From NCBI GenBank assembly GCA_047967505.1, contig CM106538.1: a stretch of 64,000 bases of DNA, one strand, 5' to 3'. The position numbers and the translations under genes are program-made. Positions 23,961 to 60,820 of the stretch are shown here, piece by piece. The notes below the pieces were generated by a model, which was given only the letters and a program-made list of their open reading frames with translations, was not told the origin of the DNA and did no database searches. The DNA is from Dipteris shenzhenensis. Lineage: Eukaryota. Numbering within the stretch: the stretch's first letter is position 1; every line of letters begins with the position of its first letter.

Positions 23961-25563
23961 CATGGATAATAGAACCGCCTAGCTAGCCAACTTGTCAAAA
24001 GCAGGCATTCTTTGATATCTTATATTAAGAAACCAATAAAAGCTATGATTAATGGCTTTTAAAAAAAATGATGACAAATTTTATCTAGCATGCATACAGT
24101 CAAGTTTTCTTTGGTAATATTATGACTGATCTTAGATGCAGAAGTTAAAATCTTTCCCTCTGAAGCTAGGCAACTCTTTTTGTACTTTTTCACACTTTAT
24201 TAAAGCTAACCTCTAATTATTAAAGTTTTTTTCCCTTAAGAATATGGGAAGCACTATTAGCTCTATATATCTATTTATGATATTGGTTTTATTAGGATGT
24301 TTATATAACTAAAAACATCCTTTAGTACATTAAGCAAAAACTCCTCAATTTAAAGGGCTAGCATAGTTTTCCCATGTTACATTTTCCTTGATTGCCTTGG
24401 TTCTAACATTTTGCTTTTATATATATAATAAATGACAAAGCACAAGGAGAAAAGGCCTTTAAGGTCAAATAAGAAGAATTTATTTAGTTCATGTTGAAAA
24501 ATTGAAATTGCCAACATTTGTTCTGTATAAGAAGTGTATATTGTTTATTATTACAATACTAGATTGAGTGATATGGATAACAACTCGGTCTCAGCATTGA
24601 AGCATGGCTTCCATCACAAGAATGAATTGTTCTAACTTTCATTCCATTGTGATGGTGCTAGGTGACTTGGTGCACTTCTCAGTCAGGTATGCAAAGTAAT
24701 TTCATTGGCATAATAGTATTGGAGATGTGATTGATGTTGGTAACTAAACAACTTACTTTTGGATGCACTGACCATACCAACCTTTATGAGGACCCTTTTT
24801 GCAATAGTTTTCAGACACTTGAAGGGATTCATTTTCTCAGATGGAAATCCCAACCACTTGGACAAAACCATAGGAGATAGTGGGATACCCTCATTGGTCA
24901 TTTTGCCTTGAATTTTAATGTATATGACCTATATTTCCTCTATAAAAAAAAATTACGGTTATGAATGACATAGTAATATAGCCTTTAGAAGTTGACCCAT
25001 AAAAGCTCACTAGACTAGCTTGCCAAGGTAAAAACTGAAAGGATAGCTGGAATGCATGGGAGATTTTGTGTCATTAGAAAACTTGGATCAGTTTGTTATA
25101 ATACTGATAATTCAAAGATGGGAAGGTTCCTTTGATATAGAAAAGTATTTTGACTATGACAATCTCGGACACAAGGTAGCTTTTGACCTGAACAATCAGA
25201 GTTTACATCATGATGGTTCGTTATTTATGGGACACCAATACCATGGAAATATTGGAAGATGTATTTGGAAAAGACTTGCAATAATAGAATCCTTTTATCA
25301 ATGCAATATGGGCTCTTTTGAATTATTTTTGTATGGACTTGGACTGCTTTCATGAAGTGTAATTAACTTGAAATGAGAAAAGTAAGGGTAGAGATCTAGG
25401 TACACTAATGTTAAGTTTATTACCATGGGAAAAAGAAGTGGGAAAAACGATGTTTAATTATATTATCAGCAAAAGCGAGGTTTATTATATTATATGCTAG
25501 TTGGATGGGGAGGAGCTAAAAGTGGTGCTCGGGCATCCTCGCTTTGCGTTGTGCCGGCTTCTT

Positions 25564-26113
25564 TTACCAGCCAGCTTTCTTCTTCTCGCGATGCTCATAC
25601 AGTGCGTAACCCGCAGATCCCAGAGCTGCTACTCCAGCCAGCTCTGCTTCTGTCTTATGCCTCCCAGCATCCGCTACATCGGTCTTTGCTTTGTGGCCTT
25701 CATACTGCACACAATTAACCACGAAACATCGGTATTAGAATCCTCTCCTTCCTCATCGCATCGACTTTCCCCGCACATACTAGAAAAGGAAAAACGCTAG
25801 CGTCCGGGAGGACGTCCCACAGCGACGTCTGTAATGATCTTACCAAAGCGAATGCTCCTGCCGCAACGGCACCCAGCTCACCGAGGTGCTCGTTGCGCTG
25901 ATAGGCGCCCTTCTCCTGGCGGCGAGAGTAATCGACTTCCTCCTCTCTTACACGCTCGTAGGTCTCTCCGTAAGGACGGCTGGCGTAGCGGTCGCCATAA
26001 ACGTAAGATCCTTCGTGGCAACGAGGGGGCGGAGCTTCCACGTAGGAAGTCCTTTCGTAGGAGTCATCATAGTAGACTTCTTCGGGCTGGTGGTGGTGGT
26101 GGTGGTGCGACAT
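25564..26113 (-). CDS. ASR: ABA/WDS-induced (ASR-like) protein, copy 1; exons 26113-25844 and 25704-25564; 136 aa
   Basis: N-terminal His run. EHLGELGAVAAGAFAL|YEGHKAKTD...HKTEAELAGVAALGSAGYALYEHREKKK matches the ABA_WDS family pattern. Phase-0 GT-AG intron; in-frame stop at 25564. Confidence 0.92.
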
Positions 26114-27834
26114 GTTGAATGAGGTGATGAAGAACAAGAGGGGGAGCTGTGAGCCTGCTGCAAGTTGGAAAGACTGGCTTTCCGAGTTCCTATTTATCAT
26201 AGAAAAGCGGCAGTAATCAAAGATGCGAAAGGGCTCACAGGGTGGAGGCGTGACGAATCCGATTCGTTCCCGTTACGTCAAAAACTATTGCGCCAGAAAA
26301 AGTCGTGATTCGGTGACACTTCACAGAAGCACTCCGGCCAATATCTGCTTGATTTCGATATCTCGAGATGACAAAATATCGTGAGGTTTTTATGATTATA
26401 GACACCTGGTTTTTGAAATTCATTGCACACAACTTAGTACAACAATGGAATGTTGAGGGGTGTCGTGCTTGAATCTCCACTTTCATTTCCATGGTGGGAA
26501 ATCAAATCACTTTAACTATACGAACTAAAAACTCGTTTTGGAGCCAATTGCTCCAGTAGTAAACCCCTCAAACTCCAAAATTACATCTTTGAAATACCTA
26601 TACTTTTCTGAGGAAAAGGAGATAAGGGAGGAGATCATTATTCAACACATCATAGTCTCGTCTATTGTAAAAGAATCTGGATATATACAAATTTTTTGTA
26701 GGATCTACATACCCCTTAAATAGACTATCATCGATAAGCGAGGTGTTATTGCTAGTGAATAATAAATCATTTGCTCAAATAGCAAGCAAAGTTTTAAGCA
26801 TGCATTCAACACCTGGCTTGTCGAGTTTATATATTTTATTTAAGTAATGTGAGTGGTATTACTATTAGCCCCTATTTTCATAAAACAGAAGCTCCTCAAA
26901 AATTCTTCTCAACTTACACAGCCCCTCGAGGGCATTTTCCCAGGTGGCTCTCCATGCTCCTCAAGCTCTCTTGGAAGTTGTTGGAACGTGGACAAGTTTT
27001 GATTCTTGTGTCACGAAGCTTTCAAGTGAGTCCCTATTCCTCTTCACAAGCTAGCTAACTAATAACATAAATCATTTCTTGTTTCTTTGTTTGCTTTCTT
27101 AATTTAAACCAAGGAACCACATGGTACAATGAAGTTTGTCATGAGTTGTAAGAGAACTAGACAAAGGCTGTGAGATAGGAAAGTTGATATACCCGATCAA
27201 GGTATGAGGAGGAGGTTGAAAGCCATGGAAGTTGATGATATGATATCTAAACAACGATGGAAGACACATTTGCAATGAATGCCGAGGGAGAGACAAATGC
27301 TACTCTCATAGGTAGTAAAGAGGGAGAGACAAATGCTACTCTCGAAGGCTACTAGTAGATGCACCCATTTGAGCAGTGCCATCAAAATGAAGAACACGAG
27401 ATGTGGTTTCAAATCTATAAGGAGCATTTGAGGTAGCAACATTAGGTCAGTTAGTTGGCGATGAGGCTCGTATCCTTAGAAGGTTTACCCTATACCCAAG
27501 AATTCATTGAGTTTCCACTCTTCCAATGCCCCAAGACTAGAGTTACATGCCCAAGAGGTCATACTCTCTAACTCTAGGGATGGCCTCGACAATGTGAAAG
27601 GGCTGAATAGCTTAGATCAACTAGCTGCAAAGAGGGAAATATTAGTTATGTTATTTTCATCTGAAACAAACATGAAACAGCTTGGGTGCACAATGTCAAA
27701 GATGTTGTCCATTAGAAGGACCAATGCAATTCTAGTAATTAGTGTCAATCGGAAGCGATGTAGCTCGATGTGAGAATCTTGAGGGTATGTATTACCTAAT
27801 TGCAAGAAAAGAAGCGACTACCTAAGTGAGGAAG

Positions 27835-28983
27835 TGTGACGCTCCAATTTTGTATATGAAATATTTTGGAGTATATATCACAGATAGTGTTCAAAAAGGA
27901 TGGTTTTGATGTTTTAAAGGTTTTGGGAAAGTTTGGTGTTGGTCGAAAAATTTTGGTTTTTGTCCATTATGGTGTCGGCTGGATTTTGCGGCTTGATTTG
28001 AGTTGGTTAGAGAAATAATTTGAAGAAACTCTATATGAGAGAGTTTTAGATTTTGTTGAGTAGAAAAACTTTGTCCTGGTGAAAAATTTGTGGTTCACTC
28101 GTTTGCATGCCTGTATGGAGGTCAGAAGTTGCTAACAAAGTGGTTTTGAGCTAAAAGTGCATCTAGATTTCCGTGTCAAGAGTTGCAGGCATTAGACGGA
28201 GGTCGAGATGGAAGAGTTAGCCATGAAAGGTCAAATGCAAAAGGGAAAGAAGAGGGTCCGATCTTCGAGATGAGCTATTGAGCTTGTCCATTGGATCTAC
28301 GAGGCAGGCGTGGTGATGCTCCGAACAGGGCTGTTTTCATGCCTTTAAAAAACAAAAAGAAAAAAAGAAAAAAAGAGACACGTCGAGATTCCGTACGCGT
28401 TTGCTATCATAAGCGCACGCTAAAAGAAGGTGAAAAGCACACGCACGCTTTTGGAGAAAAGCTATTTTTGGCCGATTTTGGAGGCTTTTGGCCGCTTATT
28501 TTGGAGTCGTGAAAGGCTATAAAAGAAGAGGAGATCGTGAGAAGGAGAACACACAATCCAACGCATGCATATCGAGGCTGAGCGAAAGAGAAGAGAAGGC
28601 ACACATCTCGAGGTTGCTCGAGCGAAGAGAAGGCATGCATATCGAGGTGCTGCGAAAGTGACAATAGCGCACGCGAATCGAGGCAGTGCAAAGAAGAAGA
28701 TAAGATCAAGATATTTTGAGAGAGAGAGTGAGAGTGAGAGTGAGTGTGATTGAGATTTGATCATTGGATCATCTAATTTGAACATCTTCATGCGAGTGGG
28801 AGTGAGAGTGAGATATCTCGGGGGTGGACGGGTGGTATCGAGCTCCTTCACGGAGTGATTCTTCTCCAAAATTATTGTAAATACTCATCAGTTTGATTCA
28901 TACTGCAATCTTTCTTCTTGTTCATTCGTGATTATTATCTTGCTACAATTTTGATTGTGATTGTGAAAGAACGATGCGTGACA
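27835..28983 (+). repeat. 5' LTR (1149 bp)
   Basis: Direct repeat of 48265-49408 with scattered substitutions. Contains the TATA-like ctataaaag. Confidence 0.97.
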
Positions 28984-33546: not shown

Positions 33547-33573
33547 AACACACTATTCAAAATTTTTGGACTT
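33547..33573 (+). repeat. Left TIR AACACACTATTCAAAATTTTTGGACTT
   Basis: Exact reverse complement of 48209-48235. Confidence 0.95.
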
Positions 33574-33898
33574 TCTCTCTTGGTTTGGACTTTTTTTTGG
33601 AGCATATCCTTTCCACTCAACTTCACTTAGTGAGCTAAAAAATTGGGTTTTTTGAGCACTTAATGGGTCACTTATATACAAATATGGCCTTATTAAGCTA
33701 GTAAAAAGTCAAGTGGTAACCTCTAATTTTAAAAAAAATGGCTCGCTGAAGCTATAATTCCCAAACTCATGCATGGTGCCTCCATCCAATAACTATAATA
33801 ATAATAATAGTAGTCTCCTAACTCAAGTTCAATTTTAACACTATGAAGTGAAAATATGACACCATATGAAAAGAGTTTGTTGAATTCAACATATAAGT

Positions 33899-34158
33899 GG
33901 TGTATAGATACACCATTTAAAAAAAAAAAAAGAGTTTGTTGAATTCAATACATAAGTGGTGTATAGATACACCCTTTTTTAAAAAACAAACCATACAATA
34001 AATTATCTTATTGGTGGTGTATAGATACACCATTTGTATGGAAAAAAGCATACAAAACATTATCTTATGCATCTGAATCTCGTTATTGGTGGTGTATAGA
34101 TACACCATTTGTATGGAAAAAAGCATACAAAACATTATCTTATGCATCTGAATCTCGT
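33899..34158. repeat. Left subterminal repeats carrying the palindrome GGTGTATAGATACACC (4 copies)
   Basis: Copies at 33899, 33958, 34016 and 34091. Includes a ~75-bp tandem duplication overlapping the transposase stop. Confidence 0.85.
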
Positions 34159-37100
34159 TCAGAGTCATCAGACTCATGTAATGTATTTGAGCTTGATGGG
34201 TCAAGTCTTGCCAAATGATGTTTAATATGGACACGACTTGGATCAGGGATTGTGATACATTTTTCAACATTGTATCCATGCTTCTTTTTAAAACTTCGTG
34301 TCCTCGATTTCCAACAATGAATAATGCTACTGACTTCCACCTCTGTTAATCCCTCATTATTTGGAACCCATTCACGTTTCTTTTGCAAGCATCCCTCATA
34401 GAGTTGTTTTATTGTATATCTTCTCGGGAGATTTTTTAATGGCTTTGGTTCATACCATAAAGCTGTAAATGTTATAGGAGTTCCCTTGTCATCCCTTTCT
34501 ATCTTAGTAACCTTTGCAACCCAAATTGGGCCACCTTGGTCATCCAACTCTGAACCCGGATCACATGCCCAAACTGCAACAAATAGACCCTCTTCAATCT
34601 CATTACATGGTATAAACTCTGGTAAGGGTTTGTCTCCCTTCCTGCCACAATATTTTCGAGGTAAAAGGCATTCCTCTGCTTCCTCCATATCTACTAACAT
34701 ATTTATATCCAAAGGAAAACTTGGTGACCTAGCTTGTTCCGGCCAAAAGGATTCAGAGTATTCAATGCTCATTAAGTTTTCTTGTCTTTCTAAAGATTGG
34801 ATAAGTGCTTTAGTTGATTTAATTGTCTCCAAATTCTTAGTTGATTGCTCAGGATATTTCTGCATCATACTTTGAAGATGTTTAATGAAGGCTTTCAAGC
34901 CTTTCATTTCATCTATGTCAAGTGATTTGTTTTTTGCAAGAACAAATCTAGTTTCCTCCAATGGAATTATTCGTTGTAACAAAGCATATGACTCACTCCA
35001 TAAATGATCTCCATCTACTGAGTAGTGCTTCCATTGCATCACTGGAATATTGTTATGCATGTGAAACTGAAAGTAGTGTGGATTTGTGTGTCCTATTAGG
35101 GCATCATCTCCTGTTTGTAAATGTGGCTCTATAAATGCTCTCCAATCTACCATCCTCTCTAAGATAGCCACTTCTGATTCTTCCTTACGAGAACCTCCAA
35201 TTTTTTTCCCAATTCGAAATAGCATATCCTCCATTGTCAAAACATCCATTGCCTTCAACTCACCAGAGATAACACTGAAGATTTGATCTATGTCTTCATG
35301 TGTATGGCCGACAAGAAGAAAGCCAACTTCCACTTCTTCAAATATTTTCAGACCAACCAACATAGAGCATAAAGCAAATATATATTTATTCTTGTTCTCT
35401 CTCCAATAATTATCAGCTTGTATTCGCAATGTGTTAGGCAAACATCCGCGAGCATCTCTGACCTTTCTTATTGCTTTCATGATTGATGTAACAACCTGGT
35501 TACTATCATGGTCATGCAAACTATCAATCCATACATCACAAAATATTCGGTATCCATGTACTAATACTCCACACAAGTGTGTTTTTAGTCCACGTTTGCC
35601 CTCCAATGCCGGTGGGATACGTCTATATCGTGGCAAAGTGGTTGTATTCTGGTCCATGCCATCAATGGTGATGCACATGGACTTATTGACATGTGAAATA
35701 GCTTCCTCTCTCCAAGAAGCATACAACTTTCGAGCATCCTGCACATGACGTAAATGGATTGATCGCCATTTAATATATCTTCCTCGCTGCTGCTCACATT
35801 TACTATGTTCAATGGCATTTTTTAATTCATCACATGTCTTACATTTTGACATCCTTTGCTTTGATGGTGTCTTGACATGGCAAAAATCTCTACGCCAAAT
35901 TTTGTACAAGGTTGATCGTGAAATCATGCTCTCGTCTCTGTCTTGTAAAGTTTTATTGACAGTCTCTAGGACGACCTTCTTTGGCATTGGCATTCGACAC
36001 GTCCATCTAGCATTGTTTGTTGAAGATGAGGCTGTGGTAATGCATGGTCTTCGAGAACTTGCTTTAATGTTGCGGTTGCATTTATAGTGCTTCCATGGCA
36101 TTTAAGCTTGTACGTATTTCCATGAATTGTATGAATAACTTTTTCTTTCACCTCTGCCCAGATGGTCCAATATGTGCCATGTGATAGTCCAGTTAACCAT
36201 TGATATCCTCGATTGCAAATGGGTCTCCCATTAACCATGGGTTTCAATCTAGGTTTACAGTGTCCTGTGCTCAAATCTTGATTAGTGCCTTGATGAAGAA
36301 AGCATGAAAACTCTTGAAGAAGATAGTTATGTCTATTAGGCGCTGTCTTACTCCAAATACCAAGGCGTATGGCTGCACAATCATCTTTCCCAACTTTTCT
36401 AATGCAAAGTCTCTTGCAACAAACTCGCATAAGCATCCTTTCCATATTCTCCTCGGATAGCATCACATGTCTCTTTGGTTCTGGAATTGATGCCATGATT
36501 CTTCGCCTCTTCACACTCACATACTTTCTTTTTGTAAATAGTGTCTTGCGTTTTCTAGTTGTAAGACCATCAAACCTCGAATCCATTTCCCTTGAATCTT
36601 CATCTTTATAATCAAATGCTGTGTAGGCTTGAGAATTATTTGATACCTTATAATATCTTGGAAATGGCAATCTGGTCGACATGTTCATTGATGTCAATTT
36701 GTTGCTAATGCCTCTTGAATTTTGTGGTTGAACTGTTTCTCCTTCGTAACTCAAGATTCTCCCATCTATATTCTCTGGCATGCTAGCAACAATATTCTCA
36801 GATTCTCTGCCCCTTTTGCCTTGTATTGGAGTGGTAACATCATGATCATTGTCACTAATATCATCAATTCCTGTTATTGCATCACTTATCCCATTGATCT
36901 TTGCGTGTATTTTTCTTTGTGGTCCCATCTTATTATTTTCAACACATCTTCTGTCTTTTATATCAATAAGCATGTTTGAGTCACTTGCAGCACAAGACAA
37001 GTCTTCTATACCAGTGAGCCTGTTTGAGTCACTTGCAACACAGGATAAATCTTCTATACCAGTGAGCCTGTTCGAGTCACTTGCAACACATGACAAGTCT

Positions 37101-40100
37101 TCTATACCAGTGAGCCTGTTCGAGTCACTTGCAACACAAGACAAGTCTTCTATACCAGTGAGTATATTTGAGTCACTTGCAACACAAGAAACCTTTTCTG
37201 CATCAACATCTGTTACTATAATGTCCTCGATACCTGTGAGCATGCCACTATGATACTCTTGATTACTACTATAGCTTCTTATCAATTTGGATCCCATTTG
37301 TGTTATAGTCTTTTTCTTCTGATAATATTCTGTTGTGTCTTCCATGACATTGAAGGAAACTGTCTTGGGCAAACTTGATTTCAAGAAAGCTAACCCCCAT
37401 TTACAAGTACTATGAACTTGTAGTTGAGACGTAGTATTATGGACGTCTAATTGTGAAGTACTATCCATTGCATTTTGAATGACACCTGCACTAGTCAACT
37501 TAATTATCTCCACTATACAGAGAAAACTCTGAGCATAGCCCTTAAAGTTGCCAATTGCTAAAACTTCTCCGAAGCGAGATAACATCTGTACTTTTTCCCC
37601 CTGGATATAAGTTTTCTTGATATCTTGAAAGTATGTCTTTGGAACAATTTCGTCTTGGTCCCAGAGTGTTCTGTGTGCTTGCATATCAAATATATCACAT
37701 TGTAAGATATCTCCCAATGTTTCAAAGTCTCCATGTGGATATTTTAAATGTACTTCAGGATTTACAACGTTGGTGATTATCACTACACATCTTCTCTCAC
37801 CACAACGTTGAAAATGACACACATTCATAGGATCAAGACTATGAATTCGTCCAAAAGCCACCACTTCATTCTTCTCATATAACACCACATCCATACCCTC
37901 TGTTAGGGTGAATACCTGTTTTATGTATAAAAGTAAATTAGCAACTCAAAATGAACATTTAATAAATAACCATTGAGCTTATTATTACTTAATAACTTCT
38001 ATATCAAAACTAGCAGAGAAGGCATTAACCTAAACCCTACATCCTAAACTTTAAATAATTAATACCAAAACATCTTAACCACCGTAAATCCTAAACTTTA
38101 AACATTTAATTCTTAAACCCTAAATCCTAAACCCTAAAAATATAATCATAAACACTAAACCCTAAACACTAAATCTTAAATCCTAAGCCCTAAATCCTTA
38201 ACCCTAAATACTAAACCCTAAACCCTAACCTAAAATACAATCAAAATTTTATGATTTTTCTCGATTTGTACAACATGTTAGATATACCCCCAACTCAAGC
38301 AACACGTTGGGGGGTATATCCGACCTGTTGCACAAATCTAGAATTTTCTCGATTTGTGCAACAGGTCGGATATACCCCCCAACCTGTTGCTCAAGCAACA
38401 GGTTGGGGGATATACCTGCAACCTGTTGCTTAAGCAACAGGTTGGGGGGTATATCCAACCTGTAGCACAAATCGAGAATTTTCTCGATTTGTGCAATAGG
38501 TTGGATATACCCCCAACCTTGTTGCTCAAGGTTGGGGGGTATATCCTACCTGTTGCACAAATCGAGAATTTTTTCGATTTGTGCAACAGGTTGGATGTAC
38601 CCCCCAACCTGTTGCTCAAGCAACAGGTTGGGGGATATACCCACAACCTGTTGCTTAAGCAACAGGTTGGGGGGTATATCCAACCTGTTGCACAAATCGA
38701 GAATTTTCTCGATTTGTGCAAGAGGTTGGATATACCCCCAACCTTGTTGCTCAAGGTTGGGGGGTATATCCTACCTGTTGCACAAATCGAGAATTTTCTC
38801 GATTTGTGCAACAGATTGGATATACCCCCCAACCTGTTGCTTGAGCAACAGGTTGGGGTATATCCAACTTGTTGCATGAATCAAGTTGGATATACTCCAA
38901 CATGTTGCACAAATCGAGAATTTTCTTGATTTGTGCAACAGGTTGGATATACCCCCAACCTGTTGCACAAATCAAGAAAATTCTCGATTTGTGCAACATG
39001 TTGGAGTTACTCCCCAACCTGTTGCTTGAGCAACAGGTTGGGGGGTATATCCGACCTGTTGCACAAATCAAGAATTTTCTGGATTTGTGCAACATGTTGG
39101 ATATACCCCCCAACCTGTTGCTTGAGCAACAGGTTGCGGGTATATCCCCCAACCTGTTGCTTGAGCAACAGGTTGGGGGGTATATCCGACCTGTTGCATA
39201 AATCGAGAAAATTTTCGATTTGTGCAGCAGGTCGGATATACCCCCAACCTGTTGCTTAAGCAACAGGTTGGGGGTATATCTAACATGTTGCACAAATCGA
39301 GAAAAATCATAAAATTTTGATTGTATTTTAGGGTTAGGGTTTAGGGTTTAGTATTTAGGGTTAAGGATTTAGGGCTTAGGATTTAAGATTTAGTGTTTAT
39401 GATTATATTTTTAGGGTTTAGGGTTTAGGATTTAGGGTTAAAAATATAGGGTTTAGGGTTTAGATTTTAGGGTTTATGATTATTGTTTTAGGGTTTAGGA
39501 TTTAGGTTTTAAGGTTTAGTATATAAGATCATGAGCTTAGAGTGTAGAATCTAGGGTTTAGAATTGAGAATTAGGTTTTAGAATTTAAGTTATAGGGATT
39601 AGGATTTAAGGTTTAGGAATTATAACTATTATATAAGTTTAAGAGCTTAGATTATATAACCTAAGATTTAGGAAACTTTAGGATTTAAGATTTAGGGTGT
39701 AAGATTTAAGATATATAGACTATATAAAATATGCATTCTAAAGTATTTAGTTTAGATATATATAGACTATATGTTATATGCTTTCCAAAGTGTTTTGTTT
39801 ATAGGTATGATACATTGCAAAGGCTTTACTTTAAGTAAGTATAAGTCTACCTAGTCAAAGTAGGATCAAAGTATCCTACTGATTAGGGACAAGCACATAG
39901 GCTAAAAGCACACCGATTCATATTTTTTTACATTCATGCTGCATGGTGTATCAAAAGGTACGATCCTTTGCAAAGGCTTTACTTTAAGTAGTTACAAGCC
40001 TACCTACTCAAAGTATCCTACTGATTAGGAACAAGTACATAGGCTAAAAGCACACCGATTCGAAGAAGTGATGTATGCACACTGATTAGGAAGAAGTGCA

Positions 40101-41693
40101 TGGTGTATGAGAAGAAATGAAAAAGTATTTGATAAGAAATATTCGAAGAAATATATATTCCATATCATGGACATTCTAAGAAATATGTATTCCATATCAT
40201 GGATACCATGGATATCTGGTGCTTGCTAAAGTAAAAAAAAATGATATGGATGCAATGATAATGTAGTCTTCTAGATTCTATGGTTTTAAATACCTACCTT
40301 ACAAATACATTATCTAATTTTGCATTCTTTCGACTAACCAACAAGTATTATACACATGGAATCATGGATATCTGATGGTTACTAAAGTAAAAAAATGATA
40401 TGGATGCAATGATAGTGTAGTCTTCTAGATTCTATGGTTTTAAATAACTACCTTACAAATACATTATCTAATTTTTCATTTTTTGACTAACTAACAAGTA
40501 TTATACATATGGAATAAAAGCATACATGCTAAAAGTAAGTGTGTAAATTTTAATATTTTCTAAATTTTAAAATTAATTTAATTCTTTTATTGACTACTTT
40601 TTAAAATTGAAAGGTTATTAGTATATAATCTACATAATTTTAAATGTTATTAATGTATAATATTAATTATTTATATATTTATTTAAATTTATATAATAAT
40701 TAATTTATATTTATATTAGTTTTTAAGTTAATAATGTATAGAAGAGCAATATATTCACTAATTCTTCATTGTTTTAAGACTAAGTATTATATAAAGCACA
40801 TATGCTAGAAGATCTCCTTTCAATTTTTTTCTTAAATTAATGTATTTATATATTTATTTATATAATAATTATATAATATTTATATTAATTTATAGATTAA
40901 TAATATATATTTTTAGTAAAATTATATTTTAACATTAGTTAATAAAAATTTAATTAATTATATTATGGGGTAAAAATATTATAAATGGATTTCTTATATT
41001 AATAAAGTGTAGTGAGAAGAGTTTTTTGAAAAGATTTATGATTGAATTTTGTTTTGAAGTTGTTGCGTACGCAATAGGTAGGACATTTGAGTGGTTTTGA
41101 GATTGATAGAGATATTTGTAATAACGTGTAGTGAGAAGAGTTTTTTGGAGGATTTGTGGTAAAATTTTGTTTTGAAGTTGTTGCGTACGCAATAGGTAGG
41201 GAGGTTTGAGTGCTTTTGAGGTTGAGAGAGAAATGTGTTATAGATTTTTTTTTTTTTAAAAGGAGTTTTTTGGAGAGATTTATGATTGAATTTTGTTTTG
41301 GAGTTGTTGCGTACGCAATAGGTAGGGAGGTTTGAGTGGCTTTGAGGTTGAGAGAGAAATTTGTAATAGATTTTTTTTTTTGGTTGATGAGTTTTTTTGA
41401 GAGATTTATGATTAAATTTTGTTTTGAAGTTGTTGCGTACGCAATAGGTAGGGTTTGAGTGTTAAATTTTGTTTTGAAGTTATTGCGTATGCAATAGGTA
41501 GGGAGGGGTTGTGAGAGTTTGAGTTAAAGAGGAAAATTTATGGAAAAAAAGATTTAATGCTAAAATGGTTTTTTAAGTTGTTGCGTACACACAAGTTTTT
41601 TAGAAAAAAATCGGATTTGAAAAAAAATTCAAATTTATAAAAACTTGATTCTTAGAAGTTCTTGCGTACGCAACAACTCACCTCTTGCATCAT
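34140..41693 (-). CDS. DDE/DDD transposase gene (Sola-like/DUF7869-like core). Predicted exon 1 41693-41682 (MMQE), exon 2 from 37915; one frameshift near 35990
   Basis: Core motifs: CKTC, ITIDGMDQ, LRIQADNYWRENKN, FLLVGHTHEDIDQIFS. The N-terminal ORF (37894-35966) has Tnp1/EnSpm-like VAFGRIHSLDP domains and a CCKRLC...PICNR Cys region. Splice signals: AG|GTGAGT donor at 41681, CTAAT branch and CAG acceptor at 37916; the splice is in frame. Confidence 0.85.
36975..37190 (-). repeat. Coding 48-bp (16-aa) tandem repeat LTGIEDLSCVASDSNR, ~4.5 copies
   Basis: gagtcacttgca recurs every 48 bp and stays in frame in ORF 35966-37894. Confidence 0.92.
38027..38233 (+). repeat. Degenerate plant telomere-type repeats (CCCTAAA)n
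   Basis: Runs of taaaccc/taaatcc/taaacac. Confidence 0.85.
38113..39440. repeat. ~1.3-kb fold-back (inverted-repeat arms) filled with nested palindromic units
   Basis: Arm ~38113-38290 is the reverse complement of ~39270-39440. The interior is built from ACCTGTTGCTYRAGCAACAGGT and TGTTGCACAAATCGAGAATTTTCTCGATTTGTGCAACA units joined by GGGGGTATATCC/GGATATACCCCC. Confidence 0.92.
39327..39710 (+). repeat. Degenerate plant telomere-type repeats (TTTAGGG)n
   Basis: Runs of tttaggg/tttagga that decay with distance from the fold-back. Confidence 0.85.
39800..40510. repeat. Two local tandem duplications (~120-150 bp each)
   Basis: ~39805-39920 repeats at ~39957-40060; ~40207-40360 repeats at ~40362-40514. 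Confidence 0.75.
41010..41680. repeat. AT-rich ~120-bp tandem array, each unit with TGTTGCGTACGCAATA
   Basis: Motif at 41061, 41179, 41305 and 41431, with variants at 41481, 41579 and 41660. Confidence 0.9.
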
Positions 41694-41789
41694 TTTGAAA
41701 ATTTTTGCGAATCCTGCAACAGGTTGATGAGAGAAGAGAAGCGTGGAGTGTAAACGAATGATCTTTGAATGAAAGAGAGAATGAAGAAT

Positions 41790-41885
41790 GTTCTACTTAT
41801 AGTGAACCTAAAAGAACTAAAAAAACCTTAAAAACTAAAAAAAGCGGACTTGACCTAAAAGCTATCCATTTCCTATAAAACTCTA
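41790..41885. promoter_or_regulatory. Candidate bidirectional promoter of the DNA transposon
   Basis: Plus-strand TATAAAA at 41874-41880 and minus-strand TATAAG at ~41796-41801. Each is followed by a pyrimidine-rich leader and a splice donor (41964 plus; 41681 minus). Confidence 0.65.
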
Positions 41886-41963
41886 CTTCTCCTCATTCTG
41901 TCTCACAACTCTCTTATTCTCTTTCACAACTCTCTCCTGGAGCTCCACCACCTCTCCACTCAG

Positions 41964-43832
41964 GTACTCCCTCCCTCCCTCTTCTCCAACTTCCTCTCTC
42001 CCCTCCCCTTCCCGTCCCTTCCCCTCTCCTCCCGCTTCTCCCCTCCCTTCCCTTCCCCCTTCTCCTCTCCTCCCTCCCCAAGGCCCCTTCCCTTCCCATT
42101 GCCTGCTCCCTCCTCCTTCCGTCCCCTTCCTTCCCTTCCCCCTGTCGTCGCTACCCCGCTCCCACCCCCCTCCGCCCCCCTTCCCTCTTCTCCGCCCTTC
42201 CCACTCCCCTCCCTCCCTCCGTCCCGCCCTCCGCCGCACCCCCCTCCTGCCCTGTCGTTGACCCTTTGCCCCCCCTTCCCTTCGCCCTCCCCTCCGTCCC
42301 TCCCTCCCTGCCGCCCTCCCCCCCTCCGCCTCCCCCTTTCCTCCCCTCCGCCCCCAAGCCCCCCCTTCCCTTCGCCCTCACCCCCGTCCCTCCCTCCCTG
42401 CCGCCCACCCACCCTCCCCCCCTCCGCCTCCCCCTTTCCTCCCTCCGCCCCCAACCCCCCGCCCCCTCCCGCCCTCCCCACGCCCCCCCCCGCCGGCGCG
42501 CCCGCCCCCTTCCGTCGTCGGAAGGGGACGGGCGCACCGGGGGGGGGGCGTGGGGAGGGCGGGAGGGGAGGGGAGGGGGGCGGGCGTGCCGGGAGGGGGG
42601 GTTGGGGGCGTGGCGAGGGCGGGGCGGGCGCGCCGGGAGGGGGGCTGGGGGCTGAGGGAGGGGGGGGTGTGGGGAAGGGGAGGGGGGGCAAGGGCGCCCC
42701 CCCCCCACCTGTTGCGCACGCAACAGGTGGGGGGGGGGCGCCCTTGCCCCCCCTCCCCTTCCCCTCGCGCCCGCCCCCCCTCCCCTCCCGCCCTCCCCAC
42801 GCCCCCCACCGCGCACGGGGGGGGGCGTGGGGAGGGGGGGAGGGTCGGGCGTGGGGGGGGCGGGAGGGGAGGGGGGGCGTGGGTGGGGCGGGGGGCGTCG
42901 CGAGGGCGGAGGGGGGGCGGGCGCGCCGGGAGGGGGGGCTGCGGGGGGTGGGGAAGGGGAGGGGGGCGAGGGCGCCCCCCAACCTGTTGCGTGCGCAACA
43001 GGTGGGGGGGTCAATCCCCCCCACCTGTTGCGCACGCAACAGGTGGGGGGGCGGCCCCCCCCACCTGTTGCGTGCGCAACAGGTGGGGGCTTCCCCCTCC
43101 CCTCCCGCCCTCCCCACGCCCCCCACCGCGCGCCCGCCCCCCTTCCGGACGGAAGGGGGCCCGCCCCCCCCTTCCGAACGGAAGGGGGGGCGTGGCGTGG
43201 GGGGCGCGGGAGGGGAGGGGGGGCGTGGGTGGGGCGCGGGGGGGCGTGGCGAGGGCGGAGGGGGGGCGGGCACGCCGGGAGAGGGGGCTGTGGGAGGCGG
43301 GGTGTGGGGAAGGGGAGGGGGGCGAGGCGCCCCCCAACCTGTTGCAACAGGTGGGGAGCTTCACCCCACCCGCCCCCCTTCCCTCCCATCCGCCCATCCC
43401 TCCCGCCTTCCCCTTCCCTCCCCCAACCCCTCCTTCCCGCCCCCCGCGCGCCTGTCCCTCTCCCCTCCGCCCCCACGTGCCCTCCCCTCCGCCCCGTTCC
43501 CTCCCCTCCAACCCTCGCACACCCCCGTCCTCCCCACGCCCCCGCGCGCGCGTTGAGAGGGGGGTTGGGGGCGGAGGGAAGGGGGGGTGGGGGAGCGCGA
43601 GAAAGGGAGGGGGGCATCGATGCCCCCACCTGTTGCGCACGCAACAGGTACCCCTCGCCCCCCTCCGCTTCCCTCCGCCCGCCCGACCCCCGCTCCTTCC
43701 TTCCCTTGCCCCTCCCCTTCCCTCACCACATGCACACACACGTGTGGAGAGGGAAGGGGAGGGGCAAGGGAAGGGGTGTGGGGAAGGAGCAAGGGGGAGG
43801 AGGGCGGGCGGAGGGAAGAGGTGGGCGTGGGT
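41964..43832. repeat. Extremely GC-rich low-complexity tract with G/C runs and embedded palindromes (predicted 5'-UTR intron)
   Basis: Alternating C-rich and G-rich blocks. ACCTGTTGCGYRCGCAACAGGT cores at 42710, 42985, 43026, 43066 and 43631. CCCTTCCG..CGGAAGGG hairpins near 42516, 43150 and 43178. Confidence 0.9.
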
Positions 43833-44012
43833 GATTAAAATAAACTAACTAATTAAAATAAAATAATTTAAAAAAATATTTTATTTTAAAAATTAAAAAT
43901 AAATAAAACTTAAAAAATATTTAATTAAAAATTTATTTAATATTTTGAGTTTGAAAATCATTGTATTTCTCATTTTTTATTTTTGATTGTTTTTCAGAAA
44001 ACTATAGCTTTC

Positions 44013-47000
44013 ATGGCTTCCAGTTTTGGTTCCAAGGTGTCTTTCAAATACCTTGAACATGCTTGGTATTTTATGGAGCGGAAATCAAAGTATTTTTTGG
44101 TGATCACTTCAGAGAACATATCAAGCCCGAAATATTCTGCAGAGGCAGTAAGAAATGGTGGCATGGTATCAAACATCAATATTAAAGAAAACAATTTAAT
44201 AGAAATTGTGTGCCAAGGAAAGAATGACGAGGTGGTTTACAAGTTACGAGTTACTCCGAAGCACTTCTTGAAACCGTTACCAGATTCAATTGAGGGATCC
44301 CAAGAATTACTTAATGCCTTAGAAGCATTGAAGAAAATGTGGGATGCATTTCCAAGTGGTGGTGTTGAACCTTCAGGGGCATTAATTATGCCATCTATTC
44401 AAGTACCGTCAATATCTGTGGCGGTAACTCCGATAACTCCAACAAGTGTAACTACAGTATCTCCAACTGTACCTATGCCATCGACTGCTGCAACTACAGG
44501 AACAAGAAGGAGTGATCGTGGAGTAGACTCAAGTGCTATAGCTATTCCTAGAAAGAGAGCAAAAATAACTCCTACTCCACGTGGAGATCGCTCAAGTGCA
44601 GGCTATTTAAAACCTGGCGAAAAATTGGATAGCGATGAAGAGAAAGATCAGCAAGAAGAAGATACAAGTCTCGAAGACTTTTCTATAAGTGTGGCGGACT
44701 TACATCCTCCAGAGGATGAGGGATACATTTGGGGATTTTCACAATTCAGCGTGGCCACAATGCTTATTGATCGAGCTTCATTGTTCACAAATCAAAGAAA
44801 GCTCGATAAGATATTTGCACGCAAATTGTATGAAGATACAAGGAAAACAAGAACTCCCGTTGCCACTAATATCACTCTTCGTCCTATGGCGTTTAAGAGA
44901 CTTCAAGAAGATGATCCCACATTGCCTGATGTCACATTTCAAAAGCGCGTGGACTTTCTTGATGCTTTTGAGAACTTTAGAAAGAGTGACTTTGTTCGTG
45001 GAGAGGCTTTGTATCAAAGCCGATATGGGAGTGACATCGAGAAGAGATACATGCTGGCAAAGAATAGATTCTTAGAAAGATGTAGGTTTGAGCCCATTGA
45101 TGGGCAACACTTTTGTGAGGCTTGCAGGATCGCCCTTGATGAGGGAAGAAAAGGAAACTTGCCACAGATTGAGTGGATGGAAAAGTTTCAACGGGTCATT
45201 TGTCATATATGCATATTTAATGATGACTCGAAGTACATTCTAGAATCAGAGAGGCTGAACTCTGCTCCATTTAGGTTGAAAAAAAGCTCTTCTCTTTCTG
45301 AGATCTTGATAAAGGCAAGGGAGTTATGGATGGGCTGTGGAAAGCCACAAACAGTGAAGGGCAGGAGACCTACATCAGAGTACATGACAAAGAGGACTCG
45401 GTTCTATAGATGCTTGAAAGGTGTTGTAAGCAATACGCAAGGCATACCAGGTAACAAGGTTGAGGCAAAGGATTTGAACACCGCTGTTGCAAGATATAGG
45501 GATGTTACCTGCATTGTCTTCCGTGAGGAATCAGTGTTTCAGAGCATCGTGGATGTTTGCCAAGCATATGAAACAGGAAAGATATCCTTTGAGGCACCAG
45601 AGCACATTGCAACTCAGAGGAAAGAAATAAAGAAACCGATGTCTATTGTTTGGTGGAGAGCTTTAAGGTTTGTTCCAGATGCAATAACAGAAGAAGTATG
45701 CAAGAAGATCCTAAGTGGTGACTGCTTCTTTGGAAAGAAGAGCAAGCATAGCAACTTAGATGAAGTGGTCACCCGAATGATTCAAAGTGAGGCTGCTCTC
45801 TCGGCACTATTATTTTTATTGAAATCTGATGATGAGTTAGCTGGCAAGTCAATTGATGTGGATAAGAAGAAAGCACTTAGCCTAGGTCAACTCCTTGATA
45901 AAACATGGGCTAGAAAGTGGTTGGCTTCAATGGATGCAGATGCCACACCAACAAAGGATCTAAGAGCTAAAATGCCAAAGGTTGTTGAGACAGAATATAT
46001 GGACATTAAGAAAAAGGCCTTGCAGTCCAGTACGCAAGGTAGAGCAATTGGTGGTTTAGATGATGGTTCTTCATTCAGCTTCTCTTATGATATCCTGCTA
46101 TCAGAGAATGATACAAAATTTGCACACATCAATGGCATTGATACGGAGCATTTCATAACAATGAGCGGTCATGCTTGGGAGAAGCCATGCGTATTTTTCA
46201 TAAATGAATTGCAAGACCTTGCAGTGTCACAGATAGTTGAACTTGTGCGGTTTATTGTTGAAGGTCCTATGGCAGATAAGAAAAGATCAACGTTGGTCCT
46301 GTTCGTGACAGAATCACAAAGGGATGCCCTATATGCGAGTTTGACATCTTCATTTGGGTATTTACTTTCAAAAGTATACCATGGTATAGTCCTGCGTAAT
46401 CATATGACTGTCTTGGAAGGCACTGCCATTCAAGTCTTGCAGCCTTTCTTGATGTGCTTCTTATCGAGGGGTGGTGGTAATCTAATCCAAACTCCTTTAA
46501 GGACTCTCGAGCTTCATTACTTTGAGGACCATAAGGTTAAGCTTGATGCAGCAATGGTGGATTACAGAAAGCCGATGGATCCTGATGTGATACTAGAGAT
46601 GACAAAGAATTTATTGAATGATGGGTGGGAAGTAGCATTGTATCGAATGGGTTTTGCTGCTGAGAAATTGCTACGGCAAGGTAAAAATGTAAATGTTATT
46701 GATACCCCCCATCAAATTGAGTTCTTTGACACATATTACAGTTGCACTACTTTCTTTGAGGAGGAAAATGTCAAAGAAGAGGGTAGTGAGTCTGAGGGTG
46801 ATGATTCTAGCTCAGGTGATGATGAGGATGAAAGCTCTGCATCCGATGACTTACGGCAAGAAGAAATCCGCACAAAGAATAAGGGTGATCAATTGTCAAC
46901 TAGAGTCAAGGAGGTTCCACTCATCATACGGGAAGGTTCACGGCAACAAGAAGTTACAGTAGTACAGCACGTCACAGGTAAAGGTAAGGCTAAAGAGGTG

Positions 47001-47417
47001 GAAGCACTTCCCTTAAAATTAAAAGTGAGAAAGGCACCCTTGATCTTGGATGAAGGACAGGCAAGTGGATCGATCTTGGGTGAAGGACAGGCAAGTGGAT
47101 CAAGCAAGGAAGCCTTACTCAAAGAAGGTATGGACGAGGCAAAGCATGACCAGGAGGAGTTACCAGGAGGCATAGATGGTTCTTCAACCATGACCTTACA
47201 GACTCCAGAGCAGCCTACTAGTCAGGAACCTAGTAGCCAGGTCCCTACTTACCAAGAACTTGGTCATGAGACTCTAGAGCAGCCTACTAGTCAGGTGCTT
47301 GGAACTGAAGAGCAAACTAGTAAGGACCTTGCTACTGAGACTCCAGTCTTAGAGCAGCCTATTAGTCAGGACCCTGGTAGTCAAGGGCCTGGCATTGAGG
47401 ACATTGGTACTGAGTAA
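44013..47417 (+). CDS. Intact ~1134-aa transposon-borne protein: ParB/Sulfiredoxin-like domain, degenerate N4/N6 DNA-MTase-like domain and acidic repetitive tail
   Basis: Uninterrupted 3.4-kb ORF; first ATG at 44013 just after a polypyrimidine-CAG acceptor (43997). NQRKLD..FARKLYE..NITLRP..FEPIDGQHFCEA (DGQH at 45099-45110). The MTase-like pattern spans ~46119-46730. Domain calls are by eye. Confidence 0.85.
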   Translation: MASSFGSKVSFKYLEHAWYFMERKSKYFLVITSENISSPKYSAEAVRNGGMVSNINIKENNLIEIVCQGKNDEVVYKLRVTPKHFLKPLPDSIEGSQELLNALEALKKMWDAFPSGGVEPSGALIMPSIQVPSISVAVTPITPTSVTTVSPTVPMPSTAATTGTRRSDRGVDSSAIAIPRKRAKITPTPRGDRSSAGYLKPGEKLDSDEEKDQQEEDTSLEDFSISVADLHPPEDEGYIWGFSQFSVATMLIDRASLFTNQRKLDKIFARKLYEDTRKTRTPVATNITLRPMAFKRLQEDDPTLPDVTFQKRVDFLDAFENFRKSDFVRGEALYQSRYGSDIEKRYMLAKNRFLERCRFEPIDGQHFCEACRIALDEGRKGNLPQIEWMEKFQRVICHICIFNDDSKYILESERLNSAPFRLKKSSSLSEILIKARELWMGCGKPQTVKGRRPTSEYMTKRTRFYRCLKGVVSNTQGIPGNKVEAKDLNTAVARYRDVTCIVFREESVFQSIVDVCQAYETGKISFEAPEHIATQRKEIKKPMSIVWWRALRFVPDAITEEVCKKILSGDCFFGKKSKHSNLDEVVTRMIQSEAALSALLFLLKSDDELAGKSIDVDKKKALSLGQLLDKTWARKWLASMDADATPTKDLRAKMPKVVETEYMDIKKKALQSSTQGRAIGGLDDGSSFSFSYDILLSENDTKFAHINGIDTEHFITMSGHAWEKPCVFFINELQDLAVSQIVELVRFIVEGPMADKKRSTLVLFVTESQRDALYASLTSSFGYLLSKVYHGIVLRNHMTVLEGTAIQVLQPFLMCFLSRGGGNLIQTPLRTLELHYFEDHKVKLDAAMVDYRKPMDPDVILEMTKNLLNDGWEVALYRMGFAAEKLLRQGKNVNVIDTPHQIEFFDTYYSCTTFFEEENVKEEGSESEGDDSSSGDDEDESSASDDLRQEEIRTKNKGDQLSTRVKEVPLIIREGSRQQEVTVVQHVTGKGKAKEVEALPLKLKVRKAPLILDEGQASGSILGEGQASGSSKEALLKEGMDEAKHDQEELPGGIDGSSTMTLQTPEQPTSQEPSSQVPTYQELGHETLEQPTSQVLGTEEQTSKDLATETPVLEQPISQDPGSQGPGIEDIGTE

Positions 47418-47559
47418 CATGTTGGCTAACGGCTTTGTAATCACAAGTTTTGAACTTCTATGTAAAGCTAATATCTAATGAAAAGTTTACTACTTTTTTT
47501 ATTTCTTTACTCTCATTATTATGTATAAAGATTGTTTATGAGGGCCATTTTATACTTAA

Positions 47560-48135
47560 CGGTGTTTTTTAATACCAAGTGTGGTGTATATGTACACTAC
47601 TTACACATAAAAGGATTTATCTACACTACCTTTCTAAGGGCTTTATGTACACCACCTTTCTAAAAGAAATGGTGATAAAGGTGTGTGCACACCACTTATA
47701 CATAAAGGTGTTTATTTACACCACCTTTCCAAGAGAATTGGTCATGTATTGGTCATCTATTGATGTTCTTACGTGATTATGAAGATGTTTATGTAGACCA
47801 CTTTGTAAGAGAATTGGTCATCTATTATTGGTCATGTATTGATGTTCTTAGGTGATAGTTGCTCAATTCACAAGAAGTTATAAAGATGTTTATGTAGACC
47901 ACTTTGCAAGAGATTTTTGTGAAGTTATGAAAATGTTTATGTAGACCCCTTTGTAAGAGATTTGGTTATGCATTGATTTTTGTGAAGTTATGAAAATGTT
48001 TATGTAGACCCCTTTGTAAGAGATTTGGTTATGCATTGATGTTCTTAGTACTTAATTATTAAATCTTTTGTTTTGAGTTGGCAAATCTAGTTCAAAATCA
48101 TTAAATCTTTTGTTTTGAGTTGGCAAATCTAGTTA
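47560..48135. repeat. Right subterminal tandem repeats of the DNA transposon
   Basis: Repeated atgtttatgtagacc.cttt units, a duplicated aaatcttttgttttgagttggcaaatctagtt, and GGTGT-N6-ACAC[C/T] palindromes at 47583 and 47707. Confidence 0.75.
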
Positions 48136-48208
48136 AAAAACAACATTACTAGTATATTCAAAATTTTTGGACTGTTTTTTAGTCCATTTCTCAAATTGGA
48201 CTTTACAC

Positions 48209-48235
48209 AAGTCCAAAAATTTTGAATAGTGTGTT
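48209..48235 (-). repeat. Right TIR
   Basis: Reverse complement of 33547-33573. A 19-bp internal inverted copy lies at 48155-48173. Confidence 0.95.
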
Positions 48236-48264: not shown

Positions 48265-49408
48265 TGTGACGCTCCAATTTTGTATATGAAATATTTTGGA
48301 ATATATATCACATATAGTGTTCAAAAAGGATGGTTTTGATGTTTTGAAGGTTTTGGGAAAGTTTGGTGTTGGTCGAAAAATTTTGGTTTTTGTCCATTTT
48401 GGTGTCGGCTGGATTTTGCGGCTTGATTTGAGTTGGTTAGAGAAATAATTTGAAGAAACTCTGTATGAGAGAGTTTTAGATCTTGTTGAGTAGAAAAACT
48501 TTGTCCTAGTGAAAAATTTGTGGTTCACTCGTTTGCATGCCTGTATGGAGGTTAGAAGTTGCTTACAAAGTGGTTTTGAGCTAAAAGTGCATCTAGATTT
48601 CCGTGTCAAGAGTTGCAGGCATTAGACGGAGGTCGAGATGGAAGAGTTAGCCATGAAAGGTCAAATGCAAAGGGAAGGAAGAGGGTCCAATCTTCGAGAT
48701 GAGCTATTGAGCTTGTCCATTGGATCTACGAGGTAGGAGTGGTGATGCTCCGAACAGGGCCGTTTTCATGCCTTTAAAAAAAAAGAAAAAAAAAAGAAAA
48801 AAAGAGACACGTCGAGATTCCGTACGCATTTGCTATCCTAAGTGCACGCTAAAAGAAGATGAAAAGCACATGCACGCTTTTCGAGAAAAGCTGTTTTTGG
48901 CCGATTTTGGAGGCTTTTGGCTGCTTATTTTGGAGTCGTGAAAGGCTATAAAAGAAGAGGAGATCGTGAGAAGGAGAACACACAATCCAACGCACGCATA
49001 TCGAGGCTGAGCGAAAGAGAAGAGAAGGCATGCATCTCGAGGTTGCTTGAGCGAAGAGAAGGCACGCATATCGAGGCACTGTGAAAGTGACAATAGCGTA
49101 GGCGAATCGAGGCAGCGCAAAGAAGAAGATAAGATCAAGATATTTTGAGAGTGAGAGTGAGAGTGTGATTGAGATTTGATGATTGGATCATCTGATTTGA
49201 ACATCTTCATGCGAGTGAGAGTGAGAGTGAGAGTGAGATAGCTCGGGGGTGGACGGGTGGTATCGAGCTCCTTCACAGAGTGATTCTTCTCCAAAATTAT
49301 TCTAAAGACTCATCAGTTTGATTCATACTACAATCTCTCTTCTTGTTCATTCGTGATTATTATCTTGCTACAATTTTGATCGTGATTGTGAAAGAACGGT
49401 GCGTGACA
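48265..49408 (+). repeat. 3' LTR (1144 bp)
   Basis: Direct repeat of 27835-28983, followed by TSD GGAAG. Confidence 0.97.
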
Positions 49409-59815: not shown

Positions 59816-60352
59816 ATGTCGCACCACCACCACCACCCCGAAGAAGTGTACTATGATGAATCCTACGAAAGGACTTCCTATGAGGAAGCTCCGCCCCCTC
59901 GCTGCCATGAAGGATCTTACGACCGCTACGCCAGCCGTCCTTACGGAGAGACCTACGAGCGTGTAACAGAGGAGGAAGCCGATTACTCTCGCCGCCAGGA
60001 GAAGGGCGCGCCCTATCAGCGCAACGAGCGCCTCGGTGAGCTGGGTGCCGTTGCAGCAGGAGCATTCGCTTTGGTAAGACGATTCCAGACGTCCCTGTGG
60101 GTCGTCGTGGACGTTAGTATTTTTCCACCCTGGTTTTTAGGGGGTGATTGCGGGAAAGTCGATGAGTAATAGACGATTCTAAAACGATGTGTCGTGGTTG
60201 ATTGTGTGCAGTATGAAGGCCACAAAGCAAAGACAGATGTGGCGGATGCTGGGAAGCACAAGACAGAGGCAGAGCTGGCTGGAGTAGCAGCTCTGGGATC
60301 TGGAGGTTATGCACTGTATGAGCATCGCGAGAAGAAGAAAGCTGGCTGGTAA
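59816..60352 (+). CDS. ASR: ABA/WDS-induced (ASR-like) protein, copy 2; exons 59816-60073 and 60212-60352; 132 aa
   Basis: Same structure as copy 1. TATAAATA at ~59730, phase-0 GT-AG intron, intact frame. Confidence 0.93.
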
Positions 60353-60820
60353 AAGAAGCTGGCAGTATGCAAAGCGAGGATGCACGAGCACCACTTTTAG
60401 CTGTCCCCATGTACTTCATCCAACTAATATAATATAATAAACCTCGCTTTTGTGACATACTAAGATTTTCCCAATTCCTTTTCGAGTAACTTTTTGGCAT
60501 GCCAAAGTAGAGTTTATGGTTTTCAATCGTATGATGACTCTCGTGAGATTGAAATTGCACTATGTTGTGTTTTTAGAGGATGAGTTTGGGAATGTTCGTG
60601 GATTCATCTTGGTATATGCCAAAGTAGCGTTTGTTTTGGTCTCTCTTATTATGGGACTTGTGTGATAGAAGGGTAATGTGAGAGGGGCTTTAGGTGTTAT
60701 CATAATCTAAGGGTGAGAGGGGCTTTAAGGGTTACCATAATCTCATTTGGCAGGCCTAGTGAAATTTTTACGTTATTAAACTTAACATAAGTGTTGAAGT
60801 TATTTAAAGACAAAGCCATA

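Follow-up and report, generated by a model that had tools for sequence, protein, structure and literature searches.

In plant transposons of the En/Spm (CACTA) type, subterminal motif arrays and a GC-rich control region repeat a short protein-binding motif many times in both direct and inverted orientation, and Mu killer, an inverted duplication of MuDR, gives rise to a hairpin RNA that silences the family. Fold-back (FB) transposons such as Drosophila FB, Galileo and Tetris have long inverted arms made up of tandem subrepeats, between which a middle domain is reduced or lacking, and the accessible part of the source describes extra transposase-binding sites in the tandem repeats of the Galileo arms (PMC4079207). 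The telomere-bearing elements (TBE) of Oxytricha are DNA transposons that carry the host telomeric repeat in inverted orientation (excerpts of PMC4724952), and the ribosomal DNA (rDNA) minichromosome of Tetrahymena, formed by inverted duplication of a single-copy segment, has a palindromic body with outward telomeric ends (excerpts of PMC9967165). Carriage by mobile elements is named as a possible origin of interstitial telomeric repeats (ITRs) in the available sections of a review (PMC6410037), and telomere-like repeats are scattered in pine clones (PMC3762812). Our search of the literature turned up no account of a plant transposon containing a palindrome with telomere-repeat arms. Here we describe such a module in Dipteris shenzhenensis, within a 64,000-nucleotide stretch of contig CM106538.1 (GenBank assembly GCA_047967505.1; hereafter, the window). 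The module lies in a DNA transposon whose transposase-like gene carries a DUF7869 domain, and we judge it slightly better than an even chance that it is an integral part of the spacer of that DUF7869-type transposon, produced when the spacer's own motif array and the telomere-like minisatellite next to it underwent inverted duplication, and is neither an independent insertion nor a telomere-capped replicon.

The module is an imperfect palindrome at window positions 38027-39516, centred at 38749/38750, and measures about 1.5 kb, or 1.7 kb including a right-hand extension. Aligned by blastn with its own reverse complement, it is 80% identical over 1581 columns, and a gapped local self-alignment gave 91.8% identity over 1394 aligned columns. 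Compared arm against arm, this amounts to 697 aligned columns with 57 substitutions (30 transitions and 27 transversions) and 22 gap or indel events. The arms, about 720-770 nt long, are composed of tandem subrepeats whose periods grow inward (7, 21, 77 and 225 nt), and the self-alignment left no middle domain between them. As single-stranded DNA, the palindrome is predicted to fold into one global hairpin (-713.9 kcal/mol with DNA parameters, a value without shuffle control at >1000 nt). The palindrome is a genuine fold-back structure, and its observation is statistically solid. Palindromes and tandem arrays are prone to assembly error, and a similar appearance might result from a read chimera of fold-back type or from incorrect joining of tandem repeats; however, a fold-back chimera would yield near-identical arms, so the substitutions and indels counted above argue against an artefact, as do the differences between the arms in length and higher-order structure, and we regard this explanation as very unlikely. 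Identity was uneven along the arms, at 100% in the 87 columns beside the core, 86-98% inside the core and 75-85% in the distal parts. No second copy of the module was found within the window by blastn self-comparison, and scans for Rfam families and tRNA genes gave no matches.

A first-pass annotation of the window had described a CCCTAAA-like array on the left, a palindromic core and a TTTAGGG-like array on the right, and this layout was recovered by Tandem Repeats Finder (TRF), self-alignment and heptamer counts, with a core of about 1.07 kb. The left array (about 38027-38235) is degenerate and (CCCTAAA)n-like, with the C strand on the plus strand (4 G and 59 C); it decays outward and is most canonical beside the core, contains six exact CCCTAAA heptamers and has a longest perfect run of 18 nt (TRF: 38114-38228, period 7, 16.4 copies, 73% matches). 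The right array, (TTTAGGG)-like and spanning 39327-39710, is rich in G (101 G and 10 C) and contains 11 exact TTTAGGG heptamers, with a longest perfect run of 20 nt (TRF: 39327-39519, period 7, 27.7 copies, 69% matches) and higher-order periods of 21 and 77 nt, the latter in 2.5 copies at 85%. The right junction and the mirrored part of this array, with the G strand on the plus strand and including the 77-nt higher-order repeat, occupy 39301-39516, and the extension with more degenerate telomere-like repeats (39517-39712) is without a left counterpart. Both heptamers are concentrated in the module: six of the nine exact CCCTAAA copies in the window fall in the left array and three elsewhere, and 11 of the 16 TTTAGGG copies fall in the right array and five elsewhere. 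The 15 teloboxes, six AAACCCTA on the left and nine TAGGGTTT on the right, are likewise clustered.

The two arrays are also mirror images in their irregularities. Positions 38150-38249 pair with 39312-39399 without a mismatch in 87 aligned columns, a match that takes in the non-telomeric junction AAAATACAATCAAAATTTTATGATTTTT (38232-38259), whose exact mirror lies on the right at about 39301-39328. The mirror score of the arrays was 79, compared with 55.3 +/- 5.1 (maximum 74) when the order of the left-array heptamers was shuffled, and none of 300 shuffles reached 79. This idiosyncratic order of variants, mirrored from one side to the other, implies that the arrays were copied with the arms and were not added independently at two ends, and the initial proposal that the telomeric variants belong to the arms is thereby upheld by both the perfect match and the shuffle test. 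In each array the match to (TTTAGGG)3 peaks on the core-proximal side and declines with distance from the core. The arrays contain no canonical G-quadruplex (G4) motifs (loops <= 7), and a G-quadruplex role for the arms was dropped on this ground. A relic of telomere-telomere fusion was also rejected: it needs (TTTAGGG)n followed by (CCCTAAA)n, and here the order is opposite, with the 1.07-kb core between the arrays.

Outward telomere polarity, as first annotated, was confirmed, the G strand running 5' to 3' away from the centre on both sides. Combined with the palindromic body, this polarity might suggest the remnant of a linear, palindromic extrachromosomal molecule, telomerase-healed at its ends and later captured by a transposon, and the layout is that of the 21-kb palindromic rDNA minichromosome of Tetrahymena as given in the available part of PMC9967165. 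We consider such an origin extremely unlikely. Canonical repeats stand beside the core and decayed ones distally, which is the reverse of a telomerase-maintained end; perfect runs do not exceed 20 nt; the mirrored order of variants implies copying of the arrays with the arms; and the unit of the core, as set out below, is native to the spacer. Judged from their sequence, the arrays have decayed too far for telomere function, and on both sides they continue into one transposon, with terminal inverted repeats (TIRs) at 33548 and 48234, so that there is no physical DNA end at either array. The early description of the module as mini-chromosome-like therefore holds for its outward polarity, but not in view of the short perfect runs (18 and 20 nt), the outward decay and the continuation of the same transposon on both sides.

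The core (38260-39300) is a tandem array of nested palindromes with a period of 225 nt, composed of 90 + 135 nt (TRF: 38256-38970, 3.2 copies, 90%). Half-sites TGTTGC and GCAACA, of which 37 were counted, alternate in orientation with gaps of 4, 19-21 and 26 nt. They make up a short palindrome, C-run/AACCTGTTGC-N4-GCAACAGGTT/G-run, present in nine copies, and a long palindrome with a 26-nt self-complementary insert (N26), present in seven, and these are separated by GGTATATCC / GGATATACC spacers. The motif CCTGTTGC-N4-GCAACAGG had 14 matches in the window, compared with none in each of 100 shuffles; nine are in the core and five at 42708-43648 in a GC-rich block 3.4 kb away, which is the only other location of the motif in the window. 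Its arms are invariant in 14 of 14 copies and its 4-nt loops vary, occurring in both orientations (TCAA/TTGA and GCAC/GTGC), and the C-run and G-run flanks of the short palindrome are common to core and block. Within 38.2-43.7 kb the plus strand carries 25 copies of the half-site GCAAYAGGT and the minus strand 22; the remainder of the 64 kb has none.

The core is thus one component of a stretch (37.95-43.85 kb) that consists almost wholly of repeats, namely the module, short tandem duplications, an AT-rich 126-nt repeat and the GC block. The AT-rich repeats and nearby copies (41013-41725, plus strand) carry the half-site as GCAATAGGT(N)GGG in one orientation and account for six of the 25 plus-strand half-sites. 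The repeat proper (41013-41453) has 3.6 copies and further copies lie at 41483, 41662 and 41716, each with GTTGTTGCGTACGCAATAGGTAGGG, a variant of the core half-site. The GC block (41900-43850) is formed by nested palindromes with alternating C-rich and G-rich (polypyrimidine/polypurine) arms and includes five C-run/ACCTGTTGC-N4-GCAACAGGT/G-run units; it reaches 76% GC in a window of 41% GC, has an observed/expected (o/e) CpG ratio of 0.53, contains 42 canonical G4 motifs (18 on the plus and 24 on the minus strand) and ends about 170 nt upstream of the start codon of the second open reading frame (ORF2) of the host transposon. The presence of the core unit in both the GC block and the AT-rich repeats indicates that the core is native to the transposon and not foreign. 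The AT-rich repeats preserve the half-site and G-run and have lost the hairpin pairing, which would favour a constraint at the level of sequence (binding or homology) over a purely structural one; overall, the shared invariant unit suggests sequence-specific constraint or common descent.

These observations also bear on the possibility that the module is a nested, non-autonomous FB-like transposon inserted in the spacer, with telomere-like outer and palindromic inner subrepeats. Long inverted arms of tandem subrepeats with inward-growing periods and no middle domain would be consistent with this origin, as would a domain layout like that of the fold-back elements in the accessible sections of PMC4079207. 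However, comparison of left ends at 37960-38109 with right ends at 39440-39759 revealed only 3-4-nt AT-rich matches and no target-site duplication (TSD) longer than 4 nt, the arms fade without sharp termini, the core unit recurs in the element's own spacer, and the window holds no further copy of the module. We therefore regard an inserted fold-back element as unlikely; the earlier suggestion of a nested one was not supported, given flanking direct repeats of at most 4 nt and a core unit common to the rest of the spacer.

The DNA transposon that hosts the module spans 14,687 bp (33548-48234), with perfect 26-bp TIRs and TGAGGA on both flanks as a 6-bp TSD. Four copies of a subterminal palindrome, GGTGTATAGATACACC, occur at 33899-34106. 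With its TIRs, TSD, subterminal palindromes and two divergent genes, the element is a complete-looking DNA transposon; its TIRs are without telomere repeat, and the arrays lie in its interior, with more than 4 kb between them and each end. The module sits in a 6-kb, repeat-only spacer between the two divergent open reading frames (ORFs). It had initially been placed in an intron of the transposase gene, a position that our comparison with homologues did not bear out: in tblastn searches 13 DUF7869 homologues matched 34200-36577 on the minus strand alone, plus one weak match at 63350-63511, and there is no plausible minus-strand exon between 39710 and 43900, where the frames run through tandem repeats. 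The confinement of the homologue matches, without a minus-strand exon beyond the module, places it in the spacer. The upstream open frame of the transposase-like gene ends at 37945, and its in-frame ATG (37894-37892) is 133 nt from the left array.

We propose that the spacer originally held hairpin-prone units (C-run / ACCTGTTGC-N4-GCAACAGGT / G-run) beside a telomere-like minisatellite of degenerate sequence. Breakage or fork stalling within this self-complementary array could then have led to fold-back or template switching, by which the array and the adjoining minisatellite would have been copied in inverted orientation, and the right-hand array would later have expanded via tandem duplication of its 77-nt block. 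Inverted duplications are known to arise by fold-back repair at short inverted repeats, as the available portions of PMC11724301 and PMC10164571 document. As for age, the arms of the palindrome (91.8% identity) are about twice as diverged as the long terminal repeats (LTRs; 96.0%) of the retrotransposon that encloses the host element. At face value, this implies that the palindrome predates the insertion and came with the donor copy, and it was thus probably inherited by the present copy.

Several observations weigh against this explanation of the module as a spacer-born inverted duplication. The uneven identity of the arms would not be explained by a single old duplication, and gene conversion, or ambiguity in the register of the tandem repeats, may distort the argument from age. 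Other components of the core, the long insert and the spacers, have no occurrences elsewhere in the window. Several related hairpin or fold-back elements inserted in the spacer could also have given the common unit. No significant family match pointed to a recognisable DNA-binding domain for the half-site motif in either ORF2 or the N-terminus of the transposase. An acceptor-like AG near 37916 means that the module may be intronic after all, via a non-coding first exon beyond it. Finally, the analysis covers one copy of the element, which leaves the module at most a candidate feature of the family; a 198-aa frame through the right junction and core, used as a protein query, returned 40 candidates and none at E <= 0.001, a result that is uninformative on recurrence.

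If the module is an integral part of the spacer, its half-site array would most likely provide putative binding sites for an element-encoded or host protein, in a control region common to both genes. The palindrome could also extrude a cruciform, transcription through it could give a hairpin RNA of about 700 bp and lead to silencing of the spacer by small interfering RNAs, and the 15 teloboxes could recruit TRB proteins. In Arabidopsis, TRB proteins bind telobox clusters and ITRs and recruit PRC2, according to the accessible parts of two sources (bioRxiv 10.1101/2020.11.28.402172; PMC11287191). By analogy with the binding and PRC2 recruitment reported there, the module may alternatively have been selected for its effect on chromatin, with telobox clusters that would recruit TRB-type Myb proteins, and thereby PRC2 or JMJ14, or activating TRBs, in the same orientation toward each divergent gene. 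The numbers of teloboxes (6 + 9) would be consistent with such selection, as would the strand arrangement, in which each gene has the G strand of its neighbouring array as sense strand, and the closeness of the left array to the transposase ATG. However, the arrays are decayed and their CpG depletion is no different from that of the window (CpG o/e 0.37 in the module and 0.43 in the window), the right array lies 4.3 kb from the ORF2 start, and the transposase gene of the present copy has a frame change. We consider a selected chromatin module rather improbable.

A bolder extension would make the module a standard component of DUF7869-type plant transposons. Such elements would carry a palindromic, telomere-armed control module, borrowing the TRB/Myb machinery symmetrically for their two genes or having a linear transposition intermediate tethered or healed; an element-encoded protein would use the CCTGTTGC-N4-GCAACAGG array as its operator, and the whole would be a plant counterpart of the ciliate telomere-bearing transposons. 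We give this extension only a small chance of being correct.

The transposase-like gene (34140-37945, minus strand) comprises an ORF with the DUF7869 domain (34140-36101; Pfam E 6.9e-52) and an N-terminal ORF (35966-37945), with the first ATG at 37894-37892. Among 3873 candidates, 109 proteins were related to the DUF7869 domain at E <= 0.001, all carrying PF25273, and the named relatives come from echinoderms, bivalves, amphioxus, a hemichordate, a sea anemone, Chara braunii and a liverwort. Across 35 sequences, D147/D150, D230 and E269/D270/D272 are nearly invariant. An AlphaFold2 (AF2) model of the transposase reached a pLDDT of 81.8, and its best matches in the PDB were transposases and nucleases of the RNase H fold (Mos1, TnsB, IstA, P element and Argonaute PIWI), all weak, the best being Mos1 at E 4.3e-3 and none reaching E <= 0.001. 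A profile search of the transposase against PDB sequences gave a single match, at E 0.68, and no mention of DUF7869 was found in the literature searched. Residues 23-80 of the N-terminal ORF (37706-37877, minus strand) resembled Pfam Transposase_23 (TNP1/En/Spm) weakly and below threshold, with E 0.032 and 14.5 bits where the cut-off is 21. The reading frame switches near 36020-36065 without an obvious intron; alignments of homologues overlap across the switch, so that either a defective copy or an assembly indel at this point is the probable explanation. The open N-terminal frame also holds a 48-nt tandem repeat (36953-37189, 4.9 copies, 90% matches) that encodes a repeated 16-residue peptide. 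Near the end of the window, 63124-63297 on the minus strand weakly matches residues 499-562 in the C-terminal part of the transposase-like protein (35% identity, E 1.8e-4), with the match of a Riccia homologue nearby at 63350-63511, and this may be a remnant of a second related element.

ORF2 (44013-47417, plus strand; 1134 aa), divergent from the transposase gene, is without known domain, with no Pfam or NCBIfam matches. Leads from the ESM Atlas, hypothetical proteins of fungi, were weak (score 0.90, with recognition under the stated level), and comparison with 8000 candidates of near length gave no matches. An exhaustive search recovered 47 relatives, mostly short fragments, the best with 91% over 256 residues, and no Pfam domains were found in the seven of these 47 that were scanned. 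The AF2 model of ORF2 (24 sequences) had a pLDDT of 48.5 and was unusable, and was left out of the fold search.

The host transposon is itself nested in a 21.6-kb LTR retrotransposon of the Ty3/gypsy chromovirus type (27835-49408, plus strand), directly after the stop codon of its pol gene. The LTRs of this element (27835-28983 and 48265-49408) are about 1.15 kb long, with their 96.0% identity measured over 1138 aligned columns; it is flanked by the TSD GGAAG, has a primer-binding site after the 5' LTR, and encodes gag, reverse transcriptase, RNase H, integrase and a chromodomain. A second inverted duplication in the window (25470-26920 / 58900-60452) has its arms 34 kb apart, with 85% and 76% identity in two blocks, and each arm contains a His-rich ORF with an ABA/WDS (ASR-like) match of 24.7 and 23.4 bits, respectively, against a Pfam cut-off of 25. 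Giant TIRs were rejected as an explanation, given the ASR-like ORFs in both arms, and the pair looks like host genes bracketing the nested transposons. Elsewhere in the window, two direct repeats of about 490 nt (7883-8372 / 11167-11634), 88.8% identical and 3.3 kb apart, may be the LTR pair of a small element.

The module is unusual in its telomere-like arms and is in our view of moderate interest. If other members of the family also have the module, a plant DNA transposon would be shown to transport and spread repeats of telomere type, a source of ITRs that has been proposed and poorly documented, as far as the available text of the review indicates (PMC6410037). Such recurrence would also supply a defined, testable case in which a transposon equips its own control region with telobox clusters and a hairpin-forming palindrome. 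If the module is instead a one-off inverted duplication, it would be an ordinary by-product of hairpin-prone repeats. The host element, a complete DNA transposon (TIRs, TSD) built around a domain of unknown function, is possibly the more useful lead.

The module shares with fold-back transposons its long inverted arms of tandem subrepeats, and differs from them in having no TSD or discrete termini, in lying inside another transposon with which it has a motif in common, and in the telomere-like nature of its outer subrepeats. Like En/Spm, the host transposon has an array of a short motif, but this array is central and not subterminal, and the Transposase_23 (TNP1/En/Spm) match of its N-terminal ORF is below threshold. 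In contrast to Mu killer, the present inverted duplication involves spacer repeats only, without transposase or TIR sequence. Degenerate TTTAGGG-type arrays with clustered teloboxes are found at interstitial sites in Arabidopsis (ATREP18 / ITR-1R, ITR-4L), where, in the accessible part of the source (bioRxiv 10.1101/2020.11.28.402172), the ATREP18 blocks are large, tandem and in a single orientation, without ORFs or features of transposable elements, whereas the Dipteris module has two short arrays that face in opposite directions on either side of a palindrome within a transposon. The Tetrahymena minichromosome, a free, replicating 21-kb linear DNA with functional telomeres in the sections available of its description, resembles the module in its palindromic body and outward telomeric ends; the module, however, is integrated, 1.5 kb long and gene-free, and its arrays are decayed and mirrored. 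The TBE of Oxytricha are likewise DNA transposons with a telomeric repeat in inverted orientation, but the excerpts of PMC4724952 place that repeat inside the terminal inverted repeats of the element, whereas in the Dipteris transposon it is internal and the 26-bp TIRs are without it.

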